From: a virus
Lineage: Duplodnaviria > Heunggongvirae > Uroviricota > Caudoviricetes
Virus record (IMG/VR): IMGVR_UViG_2740892444_000003
Location: 1 to 45,219 of that record
DNA length: 45,219 nt
Strand: one strand, 5' to 3'
The position numbers and the translations under genes were made by a program. Each line of letters begins with the position of its first letter. Within the stretch, counting starts at the first letter, position 1. This document shows, in pieces, positions 2,552 to 45,219 of the stretch. The notes under the pieces were generated by a model that did no database searches, was not told the DNA's origin, and worked only from the letters and a program-made list of their open reading frames with translations.

Positions 2552-2914
2552 ATGTTAAAGCTATTTGCAAAGTACACCTCGATTGGTGTGCTGAACACAC
2601 TTATACACTGGGTGGTTTTTGGTGTATGTATCTATGCCGCGCATACCAATCAGGCTCTGGCAAACTTCGCAGGTTTCGTTGTGGCTGTGAGCTTTAGCTT
2701 CTTCGCGAATGCAAAATTCACATTCAAAGCATCGACTACAACGATGCGCTACATGTTATATGTCGGGTTCATGGGAACACTGAGTGCTACTGTTGGATGG
2801 GCTGCTGATAAGTGCTCGCTTCCTCCAATTATCACTCTTATCACCTTCTCCGCCATCAGCCTGGTGTGCGGTTTCGTCTATTCAAAGTTCATTGTCTTTA
2901 GGGATGCGAAATGA
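2552..2914 (+). CDS. gtrA: GtrA flippase-like bactoprenol-glucose translocase (120 aa)
   Basis: Small four-helix hydrophobic protein directly upstream of and overlapping (ATGA) the GtrB gene; canonical gtrABC organisation. Confidence 0.8.
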
Positions 2915-3840
2915 AAATTTCTTTAGTCGTTCCGGTCTTTAACGAAGAGGCCACGATACCTATTTTTTATAAAGCCGTGCGCGAATTTGAAGGGCTTCAG
3001 CAGCATGAAGTCGAGATAGTCTTCATAAACGATGGCAGCAAAGACGCTACAGAATCAATTATCAACGAGCTTGCTGTTGCCGACCCGCTTGTGGTTTCGC
3101 TGTCGTTCACACGTAACTTCGGCAAAGAACCTGCCCTGTTCGCAGGTCTGGACCATGCTACCGGGGAGGCAATTATCCCGATTGACGTTGATCTGCAAGA
3201 CCCTATCGAAGTTATTCCTCACTTGATAGAGAAATGGCAGGCCGGTGCAGATATGGTTCTGGCTAAACGCTCTGACCGCTCCACTGACAGCAGGCTGAAG
3301 CGTAAATCTGCTGAGTGGTTCTATAAACTTCATAACAAAATCAGCAACCCTCAGATAGAAGAGAATGTTGGCGACTTCCGGCTCATGTCTCGCGAAGTAG
3401 TAGAAAACATTAAGCTCATGCCAGAACGAAACCTGTTTATGAAGGGGATACTATCCTGGGTAGGTGGTAAGACAGATGTGGTTGAATACGTAAGAGCCGA
3501 AAGAGCCGCAGGAAAAAGTAAGTTTAATGGCTGGAAGCTTTGGAATCTGGCGCTTGAAGGGATAACGAGTTTTTCTACCTTCCCGCTGAGAATGTGGACG
3601 TATATCGGTCTCTTCGTAGCCGGTTGCTCATTTTTTTATGGGGCATACATGATTGTGGATACCCTTTGTTTTGGCAATCCGGTGAAGGGATATACATCGA
3701 TAATGGTATCGATGCTATTCCTTGGCGGCGTTCAGCTGATAGGTATTGGAGTGCTCGGCGAATACATTGGCCGCATTTACATCGAAACAAAGAACAGACC
3801 AAGATACATTACGAAAAGGGATAATGTTGAACATGAGTGA
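2911..3840 (+). CDS. gtrB: GtrB bactoprenol glucosyltransferase (GT2 family, 309 aa)
   Basis: N-terminal GT2 fold (VPVFNEE...DGSKD...DxD region) with C-terminal membrane helices; follows gtrA. Confidence 0.85.
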
Positions 3841-5317
3841 TTCAGCGTTAAAAAACGATAAATTCCAGCGAATTTTTAGAATTGTTTTGCCATTGTCCAT
3901 TTTATACATATCTTGGATTGTTTTTACTGGCAGACTTTACATTGATGACTTAGGCCGTTCTCTTTACGGTTATACATCGTGGGGACAGGACGGCAGGCCA
4001 GCCTCTGATCTATTAATGTCAGCCTTGAGTTTTGGCACGCCAATCCTAGACATTACACCCCTTCCCCAGATTTTATCTGTCATTGCCTTAAGTGCAGTTC
4101 TGTCACTTTGGGGGGTAAAGTATCTGCCAAGAAAAGGCACAACCTCTTCTGCTGTATGTGTTTTATATTTTATTCTATCACCATTTTTCCTTGAGAATAT
4201 CTCATATCGTTATGACTCACTACCTATGTCTTTGAGTCTTGTTGCACTATTATTGCCATATGCATTGAAGAAAAAACCTTGGTCTCCTTTTCTACATTTC
4301 ATTTCTGTTATCGCTTCCCTGTCTTTTTATCAGGCATCAATATCGTTATTCATATTACTTATGATTATTGATGTAATTCATCTTTATTTTTCTAAAAAAG
4401 ATGATTTAAGACATCTAGAAATAATCAAGTCAATTGCAATTAACACGCTTGCCTTTGCTGCTGGATTTGTTTTTTATAAGGTATTAATTGCTAGCTCCTT
4501 TGCGTCAGGCTCTTATTCTGATGAGCACTCAAAAATTATAAACGTTGACCACACCTTTTTTGATGTACTGTATAATAATACAGTTGTCATATTTACGTGG
4601 CTTTTAAACCCGCTTTATAAGTGCTCACCTTTTCTCTTTAAGGGGTGCGCATTGATCTTGCTAGTTAGCATCATAAAGATATCAATGACATCCAAAGATG
4701 TGAAATCCAGAGTTATTAACTTATTTTTACTTTCCGCCTTGATTACTGCGGGCTTTTTCTCTTGCTTTGCACACATTGCACTTCTTAAAACCCCTGTGCT
4801 AGCGCCTAGAGTATTAATATCTTTCACAGGATTCTTCCTGCTTTTTGCATACCTAGTAGTCCAAGCCTTTGAAAGTAAAAAAATTCAGCTGATACTTTTG
4901 GCCCCTGTTGTTTTTTTTAGTTTCATACTTTCATTTTCTTATGCAAACGCATCAAGCTCCCAAAAGGAGCTAGATAAATTAATTTCCACCTCAATTTATA
5001 ACGACATTTCTCATCAAGATTTGAGTTTTAAAAATGTTTTCATTCATGGCGTTATGCCAACATCGAAGCAGAGGGCATTGATAGTCGAGAGACTTCCGAT
5101 AATGAATTCTCTGATACCTATTTATTTAAATAACAATTGGTCTTGGGGGGCTATGATTCTTAAGCATTACCTTCTCGACTACAATGTGGACGCAACAATT
5201 ACAGATCCAAAAAAGGAAATCTGCTCCTTAACACCATTCTCCAGGTCTAAGGATTATTCACTATACAGCAAAGGTGATACCTTAATAGTATCATTTGATA
5301 AGACTGGATGCCGCTGA
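3824..5317 (+). CDS. Serotype-specific O-antigen glucosyltransferase (GtrC-type polytopic membrane protein)
   Basis: Long very AT-rich ORF encoding a multi-pass membrane protein directly after gtrB; the track ORF starts upstream inside gtrB, most plausible start is ATG 3824 (or 3833) with an AAGGG RBS. Confidence 0.7.
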
Positions 5318-36989: not shown

Positions 36990-37694
36990 ATGGAAAACAA
37001 AGATATTCGCAAATCGAATCTGGCGTTTTTGCTAGATGAGCATAAAAAAATCGCTGGTAACACTAATGCAAGCTTTGCCGATAAGCTTGGAGTTAGCCCT
37101 TCTCAACTCACGCAAGTCTCCGGTGAAAAAAGCACTCGAAACATAGGGGATAAACTAGCAAGAAAATTCGAAGCCGCACTTGGGTTACCTAATGGGTGGC
37201 TTGATTTGGTACATGATGTAACACCAATTGCATCATGCTCAGATTCTTTAACTTTTGTCGGTCAGGTAAGAAAAGGGTTAGTGCGCGTGGTTGGTGAGGC
37301 AATTCTTGGTGTTGATGGTGCCATCGAGATGACCGAAGAGCGCGATGGGTGGCTCAAGATTTATAGCGATGATCCAGATGCCTTTGGTCTTCGTGTGAAA
37401 GGAGACAGCATGTGGCCTAGAATAAAATCAGGAGAATATGTACTCATTGAGCCTAACACCAAAGTATTCCCGGGTGATGAGGTGTTTGTCAGAACCGTTG
37501 AAGGACACAACATGATCAAAGTTCTTGGCTATGACAGAGACGGAGAATACCAGTTTACAAGCATCAACCAGGACCATAGGCCAATAACGTTGCCTTATCA
37601 TCAAGTAGCAAAGGTGGAGTATGTGGCTGGTATTCTGAAGCAATCTCGCCATCTGGATGACATCGAGGCAAGGGAGTGGCTGAAAAGTTCGTGA
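36990..37694 (+). CDS. cI: CI-like repressor with LexA/S24 autopeptidase domain
   Basis: N-terminal HTH and C-terminal S24 domain (GDSMWPRIKSGEYVLIEP...), divergent from cro. Confidence 0.85.
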   Translation: MENKDIRKSNLAFLLDEHKKIAGNTNASFADKLGVSPSQLTQVSGEKSTRNIGDKLARKFEAALGLPNGWLDLVHDVTPIASCSDSLTFVGQVRKGLVRVVGEAILGVDGAIEMTEERDGWLKIYSDDPDAFGLRVKGDSMWPRIKSGEYVLIEPNTKVFPGDEVFVRTVEGHNMIKVLGYDRDGEYQFTSINQDHRPITLPYHQVAKVEYVAGILKQSRHLDDIEAREWLKSS

Positions 37695-37860: not shown

Positions 37861-38865
37861 ATGAATTCTATTGAAAATCATGATGTTTATGTGTATACAG
37901 GCGATATTCATCGTGATGGTTATCTTGATCTCACCAATGAAATCAAGAAACGTAAGTCACAACATGGATTAAAAGAAAATGTTATCTTCTGTGTTGCTAC
38001 TTATGGCGGTGATCCAAATGCAGGTTATCGTATAGGTAGAGCTCTACAGCACCATTATGAAACGGTAACACTTTTAGTTGTTGGACCATGCAAAAGTGCT
38101 GGTACACTAATAGCTATAGCAGCCAATAAACTTGTTATTGGCGACATGGGGGAGCTTGGACCATTAGATATCCAACTGAAAAAAAACGATGAAATAGGTG
38201 AAATGAGTTCTGGTTTAGCTATCATGACAGCTCTTGATGCTCTAAAGGAACGCTCTATTTCAGCGTTTAACTCACACCTTGTTAAGATAAGGTACGAAAA
38301 TCAGATCAGTACTAAAATGTCTGCTGATATCGCAACCAGACTTACAGAAGCGTTGATAGCACCTATGGCCGCACAGATAGATCCTATAAAGCTTGGTGAA
38401 CATCAGCGCGCAATGAGTATAGCTATCACTTATGGTCAACGATTAGCAGACAAACCAAGCAGCCTAAAAGAAGGGGCGTTAGGCAAACTAATAGCCTCAT
38501 ATCCTTCACATGGATTTGTTATCGACAGAAAAGAAGCCAAGGAACTTTTCAAGTGTGTTGAACATCCTGAAGGCATAACAGAAATACTCTATAATCTTTT
38601 CTGTGACAAAATTCATAGTGGTGAAATTCCAACATTTGGAAAGCCAAGAGTAATGGATTTCACTGTTTCCCAACAAGATAAAGAGGAATACACTAATGCC
38701 GAAGAATCTGCAACCGGAGATGGAAGTTCTCAACAGGATGCTGGAAAGCCAGATCCAGGAAGGTCGCGATCTGGCAAGAAAAGCGGAACAACACCTGAAC
38801 GAGATCAAGAAGGAATTGGAGCCGTATCAATTCAACCACCAGATGAACAGCAACCTAATGCGTGA
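37861..38865 (+). CDS. ClpP-fold serine peptidase (SDH/S49-like) in the rex position
   Basis: Motifs VATYGGDPNAGYRIGRAL and VVGPCKSAGTLIAIAA resemble the oxyanion/active-site Ser region of SDH/SppA/ClpP-clan peptidases; last ~55 codons are Gly/Ser/Pro-rich and overlap another ORF. Confidence 0.55.
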   Translation: MNSIENHDVYVYTGDIHRDGYLDLTNEIKKRKSQHGLKENVIFCVATYGGDPNAGYRIGRALQHHYETVTLLVVGPCKSAGTLIAIAANKLVIGDMGELGPLDIQLKKNDEIGEMSSGLAIMTALDALKERSISAFNSHLVKIRYENQISTKMSADIATRLTEALIAPMAAQIDPIKLGEHQRAMSIAITYGQRLADKPSSLKEGALGKLIASYPSHGFVIDRKEAKELFKCVEHPEGITEILYNLFCDKIHSGEIPTFGKPRVMDFTVSQQDKEEYTNAEESATGDGSSQQDAGKPDPGRSRSGKKSGTTPERDQEGIGAVSIQPPDEQQPNA

Positions 38866-40317: not shown

Positions 40318-40452
40318 ATGATGCACTTTCAGTTCGCGGGTAGCGGCGTCATGTCCGCTTTCTACCCGCACGAATCTGAATTATCACGCCGAGTTAAACA
40401 ATTAATCAGAGCAGCAAAGAAACAACTGGAGGCGTTATGCGCAATGAAATAG
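40318..40452 (+). CDS. cIII: CIII-like protein (44 aa)
   Basis: PHESELSRRVKQLIRAAKKQL resembles the amphipathic helix of lambda CIII (PSESLLERITRKLRDGWKRL). Confidence 0.5.
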   Translation: MMHFQFAGSGVMSAFYPHESELSRRVKQLIRAAKKQLEALCAMK

Positions 40453-40589
40453 CCATCAATCACCAGGTGCTTCGTGCAGCACAAAACAAAGCAGTAATAG
40501 CCAGATTTATTGGTGATTCCAAAATGTGGCTTGAAGCAAATAAAGCGATGAAATCAGCTATCAACCTTCCATGGTATCGCAGGAAATGA
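40437..40589 (+). CDS. Small hypothetical protein (50 aa)
   Basis: Hand-translated (below the track's 60-aa threshold): GGAGG RBS, ATG 40437, MRNEIAINHQVLRAAQNKAVIARF... Confidence 0.3.
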   Translation: MRNEIAINHQVLRAAQNKAVIARFIGDSKMWLEANKAMKSAINLPWYRRK

Positions 40590-40756: not shown

Positions 40757-40845
40757 AGGTGTTCGCGTATTTTTAAATGCGGCAAAGACTGAAGTATTAA
40801 ATCAGCGTTATTTACTTGGGCCGTGTCCATTCTGAGAACAATCAT

Positions 40846-41451
40846 ATGAGCAAAGAATTTTACGCAAGACTGGCAGCTATTCAGGAGAATCTGAACGCGC
40901 CAAAGAATCAGTACAACTCATTCGGTAAATATAAATACAGAAGCTGCGAAGACATTCTTGAAGGCGTTAAGCCGTTACTGAATGGCCTGTTTTTATCAAT
41001 CAGCGATGAAGTTGTGTTGATTGGTGATCGGTATTACGTGAAAGCCACGGCAACTATTACCGATGGCGAAAACAGTCATACAGCAACCGCTCTTGCACGA
41101 GAGGAAGAAAGCAAGAAAGGAATGGATTCTGCACAAGTTACGGGCGCTACAAGCTCTTATGCACGCAAGTATTGCCTCAATGGTTTGTTCGGCATTGATG
41201 ATGCGAAAGATGCAGATACCGACGAGCATAAACATCAGCAGAACGCAGCAGCAAAGCAATCAAAACCATCACCTACACCTGAACAGGTTCTAAAAGCATT
41301 CACTGACGCAGCAATGCAGAAAAACACCGTAGAAGAGCTTAAACAGGCGTTCGCCAAAGCGTGGAAGATGCTCGAAGGCACACCGGAGCAGCACAAAGCG
41401 CAGGACGTTTACAACATCAGACGAGACGAATTAGAAGGGGCAACTGCTTAA
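40846..41451 (+). CDS. erf: Erf-family single-strand annealing recombinase
   Basis: N-terminus MSKEFYARLAAIQENLNAPKNQYNSFGKYKYRSCEDILEGVKPLL recognised as P22 Erf-like. Confidence 0.75.
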   Translation: MSKEFYARLAAIQENLNAPKNQYNSFGKYKYRSCEDILEGVKPLLNGLFLSISDEVVLIGDRYYVKATATITDGENSHTATALAREEESKKGMDSAQVTGATSSYARKYCLNGLFGIDDAKDADTDEHKHQQNAAAKQSKPSPTPEQVLKAFTDAAMQKNTVEELKQAFAKAWKMLEGTPEQHKAQDVYNIRRDELEGATA

Positions 41452-41834
41452 TGGCACATTCGATTACAGTAAGACTAAACAAACCCGCAAGAGAGTTTCA
41501 GGCCGGGGAAAATATCGGATTCAACATCCGTGCTGGCGTTCAGTATTACGATCGCCAGACAAAAAAGAAAGAATGGACAAACTACAGCGCCGTTGTATTT
41601 GCCAAGCCGGGAGCGCGAGCGGATTACTACCGTAGTGTTCTTGTTGAAGGTGGCATTGTGGAAATTACCGGAGAAAACATCAGGGTTGATGTTTATCAGG
41701 GGCAAAATGGTCAATCAATCACTCTTGAATTACTGAATGCAAAGATTGGATTTGCAACTTCAGGAAACAGCCAACAGCAGCAAAGTAGCAATCATCAAAA
41801 TCATCCTGTATACGACGATTCCATCCCATTCTGA
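41451..41834 (+). CDS. Phage single-stranded DNA-binding protein
   Basis: 127-aa OB-fold-like protein ending in the acidic tip DDSIPF (compare E. coli SSB DDDIPF) preceded by a Gln-rich linker; start overlaps the erf stop. Confidence 0.6.
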   Translation: MAHSITVRLNKPAREFQAGENIGFNIRAGVQYYDRQTKKKEWTNYSAVVFAKPGARADYYRSVLVEGGIVEITGENIRVDVYQGQNGQSITLELLNAKIGFATSGNSQQQQSSNHQNHPVYDDSIPF

Positions 41835-41857
41835 TTTAGAAAAATAAGGATTTAATT

Positions 41858-42151
41858 ATGCCAGCGCCTCTGTATGGTGCGGATGACGCGCGCCGCTGTT
41901 CCGGCAATTCCGTATCGGAGGTGCTGGATAAATTCAGAAAAAACTACGATCGGATAATGTCGCTACCGCAGGAAACGAAAGAGGAAAAGGAATTTCGCCA
42001 TTGTATATGGCTTGCAGAGAAAGAAGAACTCGAGCGAATTTACCAGACATCAATCCGACCATTCCGCAAAGCCACATATACCCACTTCCCTGAAATTGAC
42101 CCGCGCCTGCGTAATTACCGCTCACGCTATGGCGCTATCAGTAATGACTGA
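41858..42151 (+). CDS. abc2: Anti-RecBCD protein Abc2
   Basis: 97-aa protein ([31 protein letters not shown]...) recognised as P22 Abc2-like. Confidence 0.7.
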
Positions 42152-42161
42152 GGAATTTACC

Positions 42162-42329
42162 ATGAGAGGACTTGCATACAATCCCGGCATTCTTCCGGCA
42201 GAAATGATTATTCGCCAACGCGTAAAGCCAATGCCATCGAGAGAGGAATTGCTTAAAAGAAATAGTTTCGGTTCTGTTAATGACAACAAATATCTGAATG
42301 CGATGTTGCGCAAAGGAGGCAACCGGTGA
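42162..42329 (+). CDS. Small hypothetical protein (55 aa)
   Basis: ATG with GAGGAA RBS; track ORF extends upstream in another context. Confidence 0.35.
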
Positions 42330-42459
42330 CTGGACATGCAGCGATCCTCGACATGTGCTGTGGCAGCCGCATGTTCTGGTTAGATAAGAATGACGAACGG
42401 GCGAGATAAGCGATCGGTTAAGTGCTATAGTAATGCGCTTTTGTATTTATGGAGTGAAT

Positions 42460-43158
42460 ATGAAAAATATCATACTGGCATCATTGTTAGTGGCATCGCC
42501 GGGTGCATTTGCAGCCAGCTTTGACTGCCAAAAGGCTTCGACAGCAATCGAACATAAGATCTGCGATAACGAACGGCTGTCAAAATTAGACGAACAGCTT
42601 AGCTCTGCCTATTCTAGTGCCCTCAAAGAAAACCCAGAGAACGCAGACACCCTAAAAATGGTTCAACGTCAGTGGGTAAATATGCGTGGAAAACTCACTG
42701 ATAATAAGGCTCTGGAGCTGGCTTATCTTATCCAAATTAATGGCCTCAAAGGTTTGGGGAGTTCAGTCAGCGTAACAGCGGCCAATGAGATACCCACGTC
42801 GACGCAGAAACATTCTGAAGAGCAGGAAGAAACAAGTAAGGCAGAAGTTAAGTCGGTCAAGAACGGCAATAAGCTAACCTTAGAGTCATTCCGAGCTAAA
42901 TATGTAGAAGTAGATGGTGAGTATTACAGCACGACATCCATTCCTAGAGGCAGTTCGTTCTTGTTCACTTGCGCCAGTCGTATTGCTGATGACCAAGTGA
43001 ATGTTTGGAAGAAACATGCAGCCAAAGAGGGCAAAATCGACCTATTCTTTGAGGTTGAGAATCACTTACACACTGCTATGTTGAACGCCAATTTCCAGAA
43101 GTTGAATTCAGACCCTGCCAAAAGAGGTATTTGTAATCTGATTAACGCAGTGCCGTAA
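42460..43158 (+). CDS. Secreted DUF1311/LprI-like protein (lysozyme-inhibitor-like fold), moron
   Basis: Signal peptide MKNIILASLLVASPGAFA; mature N-terminus FDCQKASTAIEHKICDNERLSKLDEQLSSAY matches the LprI-type pattern (C-x-A-x-T...E..IC...L..LD..L...Y). Confidence 0.55.
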   Translation: MKNIILASLLVASPGAFAASFDCQKASTAIEHKICDNERLSKLDEQLSSAYSSALKENPENADTLKMVQRQWVNMRGKLTDNKALELAYLIQINGLKGLGSSVSVTAANEIPTSTQKHSEEQEETSKAEVKSVKNGNKLTLESFRAKYVEVDGEYYSTTSIPRGSSFLFTCASRIADDQVNVWKKHAAKEGKIDLFFEVENHLHTAMLNANFQKLNSDPAKRGICNLINAVP

Positions 43159-43167
43159 GTAAATTTA

Positions 43168-43197
43168 GGGCCACAGTTGTGGCCTTAAATATTTTTT
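43168..43197 (+). terminator. Intrinsic terminator after the LprI-like gene
   Basis: GGCCACA-loop-TGTGGCC hairpin followed by TTAAATATTTTTTC. Confidence 0.55.
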
Positions 43198-43394
43198 CAG
43201 CCTTTTCTTATTTGTAATAAGCAGTACTTAGTAGTGCTTATAAAACAGAATAAAAAACATATGACTTTGGCGATTACCCAGTAAAGATATTCGAAATAAA
43301 TGTAAATATCGGCAATGAATAACAATCCTCGCACTCGCGGGGATTTCTTTTATCTGAACTCGCTACGGCGAGTTTTGTTTTATGGAGATGATAA

Positions 43395-43562
43395 ATGCAC
43401 TTCCGAGTCACAGGTGAATGGAATGGAGAACCATTCAACAGAGTTATCGAAGCAGAGGACATCAACGACTGCTATGACCACTGGATGATATGGGCGCAGA
43501 TAGCACATGCAGACGTAACCAATATTCGAATTGAAGAACTGAAAGAACACCAAGCCGCCTGA
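43395..43562 (+). CDS. Small hypothetical protein (55 aa)
   Basis: Hand-translated MHFRVTGEWNGEPFNRVIEAEDINDCYDHWMIWAQIAHADVTNIRIEELKEHQAA; followed by a terminator. Confidence 0.35.
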   Translation: MHFRVTGEWNGEPFNRVIEAEDINDCYDHWMIWAQIAHADVTNIRIEELKEHQAA

Positions 43563-43577
43563 TGGCGGTTTTTTATT
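43553..43577 (+). terminator. Intrinsic terminator
   Basis: GCCGCC-TGAT-GGCGG hairpin followed by TTTTTTATT. Confidence 0.55.
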
Positions 43578-43619
43578 GCCTGATTTGCAGGTTCGATTCC
43601 CTATTCGGAGATAGCACTC

Positions 43620-43820
43620 ATGCAACACGAACTACAACCTGATTCACTGGTTGATTTGAAATTCATCATGGCTGATACTGGCTTCGGTAAAACCTTCATT
43701 TATGACCGGATTAAGTCCGGCGACCTGCCAAAAGCCAAAGTTATCCACGGGCGAGCAAGATGGTTATATCGTGACCATTGTGAATTCAAAAATAAGCTCT
43801 TAAGCCGCGCCAATGGGTAA
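43620..43820 (+). CDS. torI: Excisionase / recombination directionality factor (TorI/AlpA family)
   Basis: 66-aa protein (MQHELQPDSLVDLKFIMADTGFGKTFIYDRIKSGDLPKAKV...) recognised as KplE1 TorI; lies ~75 nt inside attR. Confidence 0.75.
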   Translation: MQHELQPDSLVDLKFIMADTGFGKTFIYDRIKSGDLPKAKVIHGRARWLYRDHCEFKNKLLSRANG

Positions 43821-44349
43821 AATAGCGGGTAAAATATTTCTCACATCTAAAAAATACCATTCCAATCAATCCCCTGCTGCCTCAAGTAGATGTCTGCAGG
43901 GGACACCAGATACCCTTCAAACGAAATCTACCTTCACCCCGTAAAAGATGGGTTTGGCAGCACACTTGCCTTATATCTACTCATTTTTACTGCAACAGGT
44001 TGAAATCTCAGCACTGTCAGAAAGCGCTGATGACTAAACAGCCCTGGGCCGGGCGATGTAACCATCACACAGAATCCTGATAGCGAAATATGGCGTGACT
44101 CGATACTTCACTCCGCAATGCATTCCTTGATGAATTCGCAGGACCGTGATACACGGGACAGGTCACTGAATGACGACAATGTCCTGGAAATCAGCGAACC
44201 GCGCATCTGAAGTACATTTGAGCGACTGTACCAGAACATGAATGAGGCGTTTGGATTAGGCGATTATTAGCAGGGCTAAGCATTTTACTATTATTATTTT
44301 CCGGTTGAGGGATATAGAGCTATCGACAACAACCGGAAAAAGTTTACGT

Positions 44350-45219
44350 CTATATTGCTGAAGGTACAGGCGTTTCCATAACTATTTGCTCGCGTTTTTT
44401 ACTCAAGAAGAAAATGCCAAATAGCAACATCAGGCAGACAATACCCGAAATTGCGAAGAAAACTGTCTGGTAGCCTGCGTGGTCAAAGAGTATCCCAGTC
44501 GGCGTTGAAAGCAGCACAATCCCAAGCGAACTGGCAATTTGAAAACCAATCAGAAAGATCGTCGACGACAGGCGCTTATCAAAATTTGCCACGCTGTATT
44601 TGAAGACGGATATGACACAAAGTGGAACCTCAATAGCATGTAACAGCTTCACTAATGAAATAATCCAGGGGTTAACGAACAGCGCGCAGGAAAGGATACG
44701 CAACGCCATAATCACAACACCGATAAGTAATGCATTTTTTGGCCCTACCCGATTCACAAAGAAAGGAATAATCGCCATGCATAGCGCTTCGAGTACCACC
44801 TGGAATGAGTTGAGATAACCATACAGGCGCGTTCCTACATCGTGTGATTCGAATAAACCTGCATAAAAGACAGGAAAAAGTTGTTGATCAAAAATGTTAT
44901 AGAAAGACCACGTCCCCACAATAAATATGACGAAAACCCAGAAGTTTCGATCCTTGAAAACTGCGATAAAATCCTCTTTTTTTACCCCTCCCGCATCCGC
45001 CGCTACGCACTGGTGATCCTTATCTTTAAAACACATGTTGATCATCATAAATACAGCGCCAAATAGCGAGACCAACCAGAAGTTGATATGGGGACTGATA
45101 CTAAAAAATATGCCGGCAAAGAACGCGCCAATAGCATAGCCAAAAGATCCCCAGGCGCGCGCTGTTCCATATTCGAAATGAAAATTTCGCGCCATTTTTT
45201 CGGTGAAGCTGTCAAGCAA
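44350..45219 (-). CDS. cscB: Sucrose:H+ symporter CscB (LacY-family MFS), 3' part; N-terminus lies beyond the window
   Basis: 289-aa C-terminal fragment recognised as CscB; ORF runs to the window edge. Confidence 0.8.
   Translation of the reverse strand: MLDSFTEKMARNFHFEYGTARAWGSFGYAIGAFFAGIFFSISPHINFWLVSLFGAVFMMINMCFKDKDHQCVAADAGGVKKEDFIAVFKDRNFWVFVIFIVGTWSFYNIFDQQLFPVFYAGLFESHDVGTRLYGYLNSFQVVLEALCMAIIPFFVNRVGPKNALLIGVVIMALRILSCALFVNPWIISLVKLLHAIEVPLCVISVFKYSVANFDKRLSSTIFLIGFQIASSLGIVLLSTPTGILFDHAGYQTVFFAISGIVCLMLLFGIFFLSKKREQIVMETPVPSAI

Follow-up and report, generated by a model that had tools for sequence, protein, structure and literature searches.

A phage-borne two-domain variant of the DUF1311 family and its possible role in the periplasm

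The DUF1311 family (Pfam PF07007) is named after Mycobacterium tuberculosis LprI, which has been described as a membrane-anchored lipoprotein combining a PF07007 module with an MliC domain (PF09864) (PMC7933661). It is MliC that is reported to suffice for resistance to lysozyme; PF07007 carries the lysozyme-inhibitor label 'with yet no experimental evidence', and the periplasmic ScwA protein, which carries DUF1311 only, displays no lysozyme phenotype and controls levels of MltD (PMC7933661). Other family members are linked to type VI secretion systems (T6SS): Etsi4, a DUF1311 protein, relieves the toxicity that the cell-wall effector Etse4 exerts in the periplasm (PMC12981562), and orphan immunity genes with an LprI domain have homologues lying directly downstream of lysozyme-like T6SS effectors (PMC9796082). 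Amongst phage proteins, T4 Spackle is a small, helical, disulfide-bonded periplasmic protein that inhibits the tail lysozyme (PMC7677548). Here we describe a gene at positions 42460–43158 of a 45,219-nucleotide stretch of tailed-phage DNA (IMG/VR record IMGVR_UViG_2740892444_000003; hereafter the window), the product of which is most aptly classed as a two-domain, phage-specific variant within the DUF1311 family and which we tentatively propose to be a periplasmic shield against incoming cell wall hydrolases.

RefSeq already has an annotation for the gene, under a name that is probably misleading, and the gene product is experimentally uncharacterised. The name in question, 'lysozyme inhibitor LprI family protein', sits on hundreds of phage, prophage and plasmid genes (RefSeq/Pfam).

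A secreted protein with two conserved domains

There is very little doubt that the gene is real and that its anatomy is as set out in Table 1. The start codon at 42460 is preceded, at a distance of 5 nucleotides (nt), by a Shine–Dalgarno sequence (GGAG, 42451–42454) and is the start also used by the Prokaryotic Genome Annotation Pipeline (PGAP), both for E. coli genomes and for the phages ev099 and SSU5. An alternative start at 42433, giving a 241-residue open reading frame (ORF), was rejected: it lacks a Shine–Dalgarno sequence, the additional residues would precede the signal peptide and PGAP takes 42460. The N-terminus, MKNIILASLLVASPGAFA followed by ASFDC, shows the basic n-region, the hydrophobic core and the A-F-A cleavage site of a leader of the classical Sec/signal peptidase I type. 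A lipoprotein can be ruled out, as there is no lipobox and the first cysteine is found at position +5 of the predicted mature chain, after S-F-D. In most of the matches listed from a deep search, an FDC motif likewise begins at around residues 15–35, right behind the leader peptide. The mature chain of 214 residues is near-neutral and contains four cysteines (Cys23, Cys35, Cys171 and Cys225). The protein matches phrog_4675, a family of unknown function, from end to end (E 1e-94), with no meaningful match in NCBIfam, and Rfam has no element within 41800–44400.

Comparison with the homologue in phage SSU5 (83% identical at the DNA level and 81.5% at the protein level, with a dS of 0.68 across the gene) indicates how the different parts of the protein evolve. 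The ratio of non-synonymous to synonymous substitution rates (dN/dS) is 0.08 in the N-terminal domain (residues 20–100), 0.88 in the linker (residues 101–137) and 0.055 in the C-terminal domain (residues 138–232), excluding a chance ORF or a decaying gene. Judged from these values, both domains are under strong purifying selection and the linker evolves neutrally.

The N-terminal domain is a bona fide DUF1311 module. It scores 25.7 bits against the Pfam LprI profile (PF07007), for which the curated cutoff is 22, with residues 23–78 aligning to profile positions 1–70 of 106. The alignment ends at position 70 because the region of the third and fourth family cysteines has been replaced: in the window subfamily, KLTDNKALELAY stands in place of the R.xC....C..AY of its relatives, so that of the four conserved module cysteines only Cys23 and Cys35 are present. 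At E <= 0.001, an exhaustive profile search returned 7460 proteins. Of the 150 matches listed, nearly all align via query residues ~1–100, and 121 of the top 125 N-module relatives belong to PF07007. In these relatives the module is mostly located directly behind a signal peptide and the C-termini that follow it are very diverse, for the most part unannotated sequence but also Sel1, ankyrin, SH3 and protease domains. Sequence searches of the PDB with the N-module gave a weak match to 6AR7 only.

An AlphaFold2 model built from close homologues alone was unusable, with a predicted local distance difference test (pLDDT) score of 47; distant full-length homologues were then added to give a 15-sequence alignment. 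In the resulting model, the N-terminal domain comprises helices at residues 38–57, 59–76 and 82–99 (pLDDT ~80–89), residues 101–136 are disordered (pLDDT ~25) and the C-terminal domain comprises a short helix, a beta-hairpin (residues 148–157) and helices at 166–189, 193–217 and 219–230 (pLDDT 81–93). The first-pass annotation of this DNA had placed a signal-peptide-bearing LprI/DUF1311-like protein at this locus and named fold recognition as a means of checking it. Its claim is borne out by the leader with its A-F-A cleavage site and the Pfam match above cutoff, and the three-helix DUF1311 fold of the N-module is confirmed.

The C-terminal domain is uncharacterised and belongs to no known family. 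Neither phmmer nor profile searches of the PDB identified a sequence relative for the whole protein or for this domain, Foldseek gave no match below E = 1 against the PDB, the fold matches to the domain were to generic helical bundles only and a word-indexed search with its profile returned fragments of the same family only. A degenerate second copy of DUF1311 was considered and rejected (hhalign probability against the N-module, 0.07%). The residues common to distant full-length homologues are G153, S157, T158, C171, N209 and the C-terminal cysteine; in the N-module, conserved positions include Y51, Q69, W72 and R76. As the Cys23/Cys35 and Cys171/Cys225 pairs are each conserved in distant homologues, two intradomain disulfides (Cys23–Cys35 and Cys171–Cys225) are likely.

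What, then, of the lysozyme-inhibitor label? The first-pass annotation suggested that the protein might protect the lysogen from lysozymes, and a periplasmic inhibitor of c-type lysozyme of host or environmental origin would fit with the Pfam LprI match above cutoff, the PGAP name 'lysozyme inhibitor LprI family protein' and the predicted periplasmic location. The label is doubtful, however, because the name derives from PF07007, which is not known as an inhibitory domain: lysozyme resistance has been ascribed to MliC and not to PF07007, and the DUF1311-only ScwA has no lysozyme phenotype (PMC7933661). In the window protein, Pfam finds no match to MliC (PF09864) at E <= 0.1, a lipobox is absent, and the second domain is modelled as helical rather than as an MliC-type fold; MliC is also absent from the families listed for 125 close N-module relatives. 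In addition, homologues of the protein are found in lytic Aeromonas phages (see below), which have no obvious need of such an inhibitor. Protection of the lysogen from lysozyme is thus not supported, and we consider this the least probable of the explanations discussed here.

A mobile cassette and its distant relatives

The gene travels as a compact unit. The DNA shared with SSU5 extends from 42391 to 43189, that is, from 69 nt 5' of the ATG through to the terminator stem, so that the upstream region and the terminator mark the limits of the cassette. The same cassette occupies the same slot in the Red/Gam lambda-like phage ev099 (97.9% identity) and is also found in an att-lambda prophage (bioA–ybhC) of strain EM20-18-50, in argW prophages that resemble the Erf/Abc2 prophage of the window and in 126 plasmid records. 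The full-length matches listed amongst the latter are plasmids of 96–120 kb from Enterobacter, Citrobacter and E. coli, which we take to be SSU5-like phage-plasmids. The cassette thus moves between unrelated backbones with different recombination modules and attachment (att) sites. A search with the single protein identified one species-representative genome, with the match on a 109-kb Kluyvera contig.

Two features of the cassette bear on its expression. In the upstream region, our own reading of the sequence identified a candidate extended -10 promoter (TG at 42423–42424, TATAGT at 42426–42431) with a weak -35 (GAGATA, 42403–42408). The TGcTATAGT element (42423–42431) is kept across different backbones and, in a four-way alignment, the last 45 nt 5' of the ATG differ from SSU5 at just three positions, as against a dS of 0.68 for the gene; promoter activity at this site is plausible. 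Downstream, a terminator scan placed a 12-pair stem at 43163–43190, starting 5 nt past the stop codon, that folds with -18.3 kcal/mol (z = -3.6; 0 of 200 shuffled sequences fold as well). The core of the stem is retained in SSU5, where similarity stops right behind it. Over a 2.6-kb region, the scan reported eight terminator-like sites where 2.7 would be expected, four of them being plus-strand hairpins within 410 nt (43163–43190, 43324–43345, 43356–43375 and 43552–43571). The middle pair matches a stretch that the HK022 record annotates as the tL4 terminator.

Morons, reportedly defined by Hendrix and colleagues in comparing the HK97 and HK022 genomes, offer an obvious frame for such a gene, and the first-pass annotation had called it one. 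When 5426 complete E. coli genomes were searched with the gene plus its flanks, 2757 gave a match to at least part of the query and just 107 contain the gene itself; in CUS-3 and HK022 the slot is occupied by other ea-type genes, and in one strain an extra 266-residue gene is inserted right behind the gene's terminator. Presence or absence between otherwise neighbouring genes is thus evident. The moron designation is largely upheld by this pattern, by the mobility of the cassette and by the terminator, which the first-pass annotation had also proposed and which scan, folding energy and conservation of the stem in SSU5 all corroborate; the gene's own promoter stands as a candidate only. Base composition across the gene (GC 0.44–0.47) does not deviate from that of its neighbours (0.42–0.48).

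More distant homologues tell a different part of the story. In a tblastn search of a phage collection, 155 records matched, four of which are close temperate copies (two records each of ev099 and SSU5). The remaining 151 are less than 60% identical; T4-like phages of 150–260 kb make up almost all of those listed. By organism, the phage records include 65 from Aeromonas, 49 from Escherichia and 25 from Klebsiella. In 51 of the 155 records at least 80% of the query is covered and, besides ev099 and SSU5, those listed are T4-like and chiefly from Aeromonas. A BFVD fold search is consistent with this distribution in T4-like phages. In Aeromonas phage 44RR2.8t, the homologue (ORF027c) shares the signal peptide, the ASFDC motif and the cysteines of the C-terminal domain, and lies in an early cluster of replication genes with the order 41 - 61.1 - 61 - denV - ORF028 - ORF027 - 56 - dda. 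In T4, the same plastic region reads 41 - dmd - 61.4 - sp - 61.2 - 61.1 - 61 - dam - 56, sp being the gene for Spackle. The sp neighbour gp61.2 was considered as a relative and rejected, having neither a signal peptide nor any resemblance to the window protein.

Full-length relatives are rare amongst the 150 best matches from a library of 1.84 billion proteins, where we recognised five (P0054, P0058, P0081, P0122 and P0146) and a borderline sixth (P0087). P0146 is encoded on a T4-like metagenomic contig, behind uvsX, gene 41 and a primase-sized ORF. P0081 adjoins genes for an EcoRV-like endonuclease, a D12 adenine methylase and a C-protein-like helix-turn-helix protein, on an island of ~6 kb (positions 2009–8071 of L005, a Logan SRR33853397 contig) that has two serine recombinases and splits a ChlI/Mg-chelatase-family gene, taken to be comM. 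The contigs of P0054 and P0122 are too short to reveal much about their surroundings. All of the full-length relatives found are in phage or mobile contexts, and amongst the relatives found the C-terminal domain was not seen beyond such contexts.

Proteins of ~250–266 residues are also encoded by Krischvirus (RB49-like) phages, namely ORF262 of phage Phi1 (L011, 4001–4801) and Q7Y3G7 of RB49. They have only the signal peptide and the DUF1311 N-module in common with the window protein, their C-terminal halves being different, and the module has therefore been reused with other partners inside T4-like phages.

Table 1 Features of the gene, its cassette and the surrounding operon (positions in the window)
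Feature	Position	Strand	Basis
CDS (coding sequence), secreted two-domain protein, 232 residues	42460–43158 (stop codon included)	+	ORF listing, Pfam, PHROG, dN/dS, PGAP start
Predicted signal peptide, residues 1–18 (MKNIILASLLVASPGAFA), type I cleavage between A-F-A and A, no lipobox	42460–42513	+	Read from sequence; family alignment
DUF1311/LprI-type three-helix module, residues 19–100, Cys23 and Cys35 present	42514–42759	+	
Linker, disordered, acidic, variable, residues 101–137	42760–42870	+	pLDDT, dN/dS, length and sequence variation in the family, isoelectric point (pI) 5.1
C-terminal domain, residues 138–232: short helix, beta-hairpin (GxYYST), three helices; no known family	42871–43155	+	
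Conserved cassette upstream region: candidate extended -10 promoter and Shine–Dalgarno sequence	42391–42459	+	SSU5 match begins at 42391
Intrinsic terminator: 12-bp stem (GGGCCAC/GTGGCCT core), 4-nt loop, T-run	43163–43197	+	Scan and folding
cI-like repressor	36990–37694	+	
cIII	40318–40452	+	
kil	40437–40589	+	
erf	40816–41451	+	
ssb-like	41451–41834	+	PHROG
abc2	41858–42151	+	Pfam Anti-RecBCD_p2, E 7e-62
DUF2737 small gene	42162–42329	+	Pfam DUF2737, E 1.6e-31
Two tL4-like hairpins	43324–43375	+	Scan; HK022 annotation of homologous stretch
phrog_676 small ORF	43395–43562	+	PHROG
Further terminator-like hairpin	43552–43571	+	Scan
TorI-type excisionase	43620–43820	+	Gene at identical position in E. 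coli 2018-01-1CC annotated torI

In the window itself, the gene lies near the right end of a lambdoid myovirus-type E. coli prophage integrated at argW, at the distal end of the early-left (PL) operon. The label 'early-left operon' used in the first-pass annotation is correct, since a cI-like repressor gene, cIII and kil precede the gene on the same strand, and the coordinates and position given there, between the Abc2 region and the excisionase, also hold, with abc2 and the DUF2737 gene upstream and the phrog_676 ORF and excisionase gene downstream. A 15-nt repeat of the 3' end of argW flanks the prophage on both sides (1069–1083 and 43894–43908; att core CTGCAGGGGACACCA), and the structural genes of the prophage resemble those of lambdoid myoviruses of the vB_EcoM-606R2/SEN34 type.

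Several other features of the prophage may be recorded here. The integrase gene (1209–2402) lies beside argW, the gene for tRNA-Arg(CCT) (1009–1083), at the opposite end from the excisionase gene (43620–43820), which is the IntS/TorI arrangement of KplE1/CPS-53-type elements. Directly behind the integrase gene is a gtrA–gtrB–gtrC-like cassette for O-antigen glucosylation (serotype conversion; 2552–5317, plus strand). The right flank holds the 3' portion of a LacY-family sugar permease gene (44350–45219, minus strand), which we take to be cscB. The 127-residue ssb-like product matches phrog_44, a single-strand DNA-binding family (E 1e-27); in Pfam it has no match at E <= 0.1. Between the cI-like repressor gene and the N/cIII region, in a slot that in lambdoid phages often holds exclusion or defence genes, a 334-residue ORF (37861–38865, plus strand) matches phrog_21683, a family of unknown function (E 1e-179), and is weakly similar to ClpP/S49-type protease families.

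Possible roles in the periplasm

A function that would serve a lysogen, a lytic infection and a restriction-modification island alike is, most simply, protection of the cell from outside attack via the periplasm. The reading that we favour, tentatively and by analogy with T4 Spackle and the T6SS immunity proteins, is that it acts as a periplasmic binder that neutralises incoming peptidoglycan hydrolases. An incoming muralytic enzyme is proposed as the target because DUF1311 proteins antagonise or regulate periplasmic wall-cleaving enzymes and because Spackle provides a precedent. The transcript would probably begin at the conserved extended -10 and end at the gene's own terminator, making production in the lysogen possible, with antiterminated read-through from PL giving additional expression during lytic growth. 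The product would be exported by Sec, cleaved by signal peptidase I and remain soluble in the periplasm, with the 23/35 and 171/225 cysteine pairs probably disulfide-bonded. There it would bind and neutralise a peptidoglycan-cleaving enzyme arriving from outside, with the C-terminal domain contributing target specificity. The likeliest target would be a virion-associated muralytic protein of a superinfecting phage, resulting in superinfection exclusion or resistance to lysis from without, much as T4 Spackle blocks gp5, the tail lysozyme of superinfecting phages; a muramidase-type T6SS effector would be an alternative.

The distribution of Spackle itself provides weak support for a Spackle-like role. 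Amongst 904 records matching Spackle homologues, Aeromonas does not feature in the ten commonest organism words, as compared with 65 Aeromonas records for the window protein. A number of points must be set against the proposal, however. This apparent complementarity comes from summary counts and not from a genome-by-genome matrix. The protein resembles neither Spackle nor any solved inhibitor–enzyme complex in sequence or fold, and there is no match to a PADLOC defence model for the window protein or four distant homologues and no effector or muralytic gene adjoining the gene. The AlphaFold2 model, from its 15 sequences, has a predicted template modelling (pTM) score of 0.45 and an undefined interdomain orientation. 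A consensus promoter scan did not report the extended -10 candidate, because the -35 is weak. The N-module is found on many unrelated C-termini and may be a generic periplasmic scaffold rather than an inhibitory surface. Finally, the target and its binding are proposed by analogy.

If the enzyme concerned were one of the host's own, the protein might remodel the wall or tune the timing of lysis, much as ScwA acts with MltD. ScwA is, after all, a DUF1311 protein that is soluble, periplasmic and disulfide-bonded; it increases the levels of MltD, and its overproduction leads to lysis (PMC7933661). Moreover, an early periplasmic protein could aid lysis control in T4-like phages. We nevertheless think this rather unlikely: the gene is distant from the lysis cassette, a homologue accompanies a restriction-modification system on an island that is not a phage, for which the timing of lysis has no relevance, and the architecture of ScwA is different, its DUF1311 module being C-terminal.

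The T6SS offers another source of incoming enzymes. DUF1311 proteins are known or predicted to act as immunity proteins against T6SS effectors that target the wall, and copies without a partner effector (orphans) are common, so that the gene, found in a temperate phage and a phage-plasmid in a cassette with a candidate promoter of its own, might be a phage-carried orphan immunity gene that guards the lysogen from the muramidase effectors of competitors and not from phages. This is distinctly unlikely, in our view, given that no effector or T6SS gene is nearby, the neighbours being phage genes in the contexts examined for such a link, that full-length homologues are found in lytic T4-like phages and that the C-terminal domain was not seen beyond phage or mobile contexts.

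The same distribution (T4-like phages, the P0146 contig and the restriction-modification island) would be compatible with an exclusion mechanism unrelated to peptidoglycan enzymes, such as masking a periplasmic step in DNA ejection or binding an envelope protein that incoming phages use. The presence of the N-module on many unrelated secreted proteins would allow specificity to rest wholly in the C-terminal domain. No positive evidence points to such a mechanism, though, and the blockers known to us (Imm, SieA, Cor and Llp) are membrane proteins or lipoproteins, unlike the window protein, which is predicted to be soluble; we regard this explanation as highly doubtful.

Returning to the neutralisation of incoming hydrolases, a bolder version can be put forward, though we think it unlikely to hold. 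Proteins with a signal peptide, DUF1311 module, linker and this C-terminal domain would constitute a class of phage-borne proteins, not recognised before, that act in the periplasm to inhibit virion-associated peptidoglycan hydrolases. The class would be a functional analogue of Spackle, present as morons with their own promoters in temperate lambdoid phages and phage-plasmids and as early genes in Aeromonas T4-like phages without detectable Spackle, its specificity being conferred by the C-terminal domain. Were the protein to block the wall-degrading enzymes of incoming phages or the T6SS, it would represent a second, independent solution to the problem solved by T4 Spackle, with relevance for superinfection exclusion, for host range in phage therapy and for the fitness that prophages confer. 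If not, the gene would be an ordinary uncharacterised moron.

Comparison with known systems

As a moron, the gene conforms to the lambdoid pattern: it is an extra gene in the ea/b accessory region that some phages have and their relatives do not, and it comes with a candidate promoter and a terminator of its own. It differs in that its base composition does not stand out and in that the promoter is a candidate. With M. tuberculosis LprI (Rv1541c), from which the family takes its name, the protein shares the N-terminal PF07007 module but neither the lipid anchor nor MliC. The structures 3GI7 (Pseudomonas putida PP0307) and 6AR7 (Burkholderia thailandensis) are solved examples of PF07007; the window module differs from these in lacking the third and fourth cysteines and in being followed by the linker and a unique C-terminal domain.

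In common with Salmonella ScwA (SL1344_0490), the window protein is, by prediction, a soluble periplasmic DUF1311 protein without MliC, and in ScwA the disulfides are functionally important. The two have no similarity beyond the module, however, which in ScwA occupies residues 185–271 of 275, and ScwA is chromosomally encoded. The T6SS immunity proteins, represented by Etsi4 of enterohaemorrhagic E. coli and the orphan genes of Pantoea hcp islands, are likewise periplasmic DUF1311 proteins that antagonise wall-targeting toxins, and amongst them too orphans exist. The window gene differs in having no effector or T6SS locus nearby, in its phage or plasmid location and in its additional C-terminal domain.

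T4 Spackle (gp61.3) is a single acidic domain of 75 residues with a pI of 4.6, in contrast to the near-neutral, two-domain mature protein of 214 residues described here. Like Spackle, however, the window protein is phage-encoded, has a signal peptide, and is predicted to be helical and cysteine-paired; its homologues in T4-like phages lie amongst the replication genes of the 41-61-56 region, which in T4 contains sp; and the proposed logic, the neutralisation of an incoming muralytic enzyme, would be the same.

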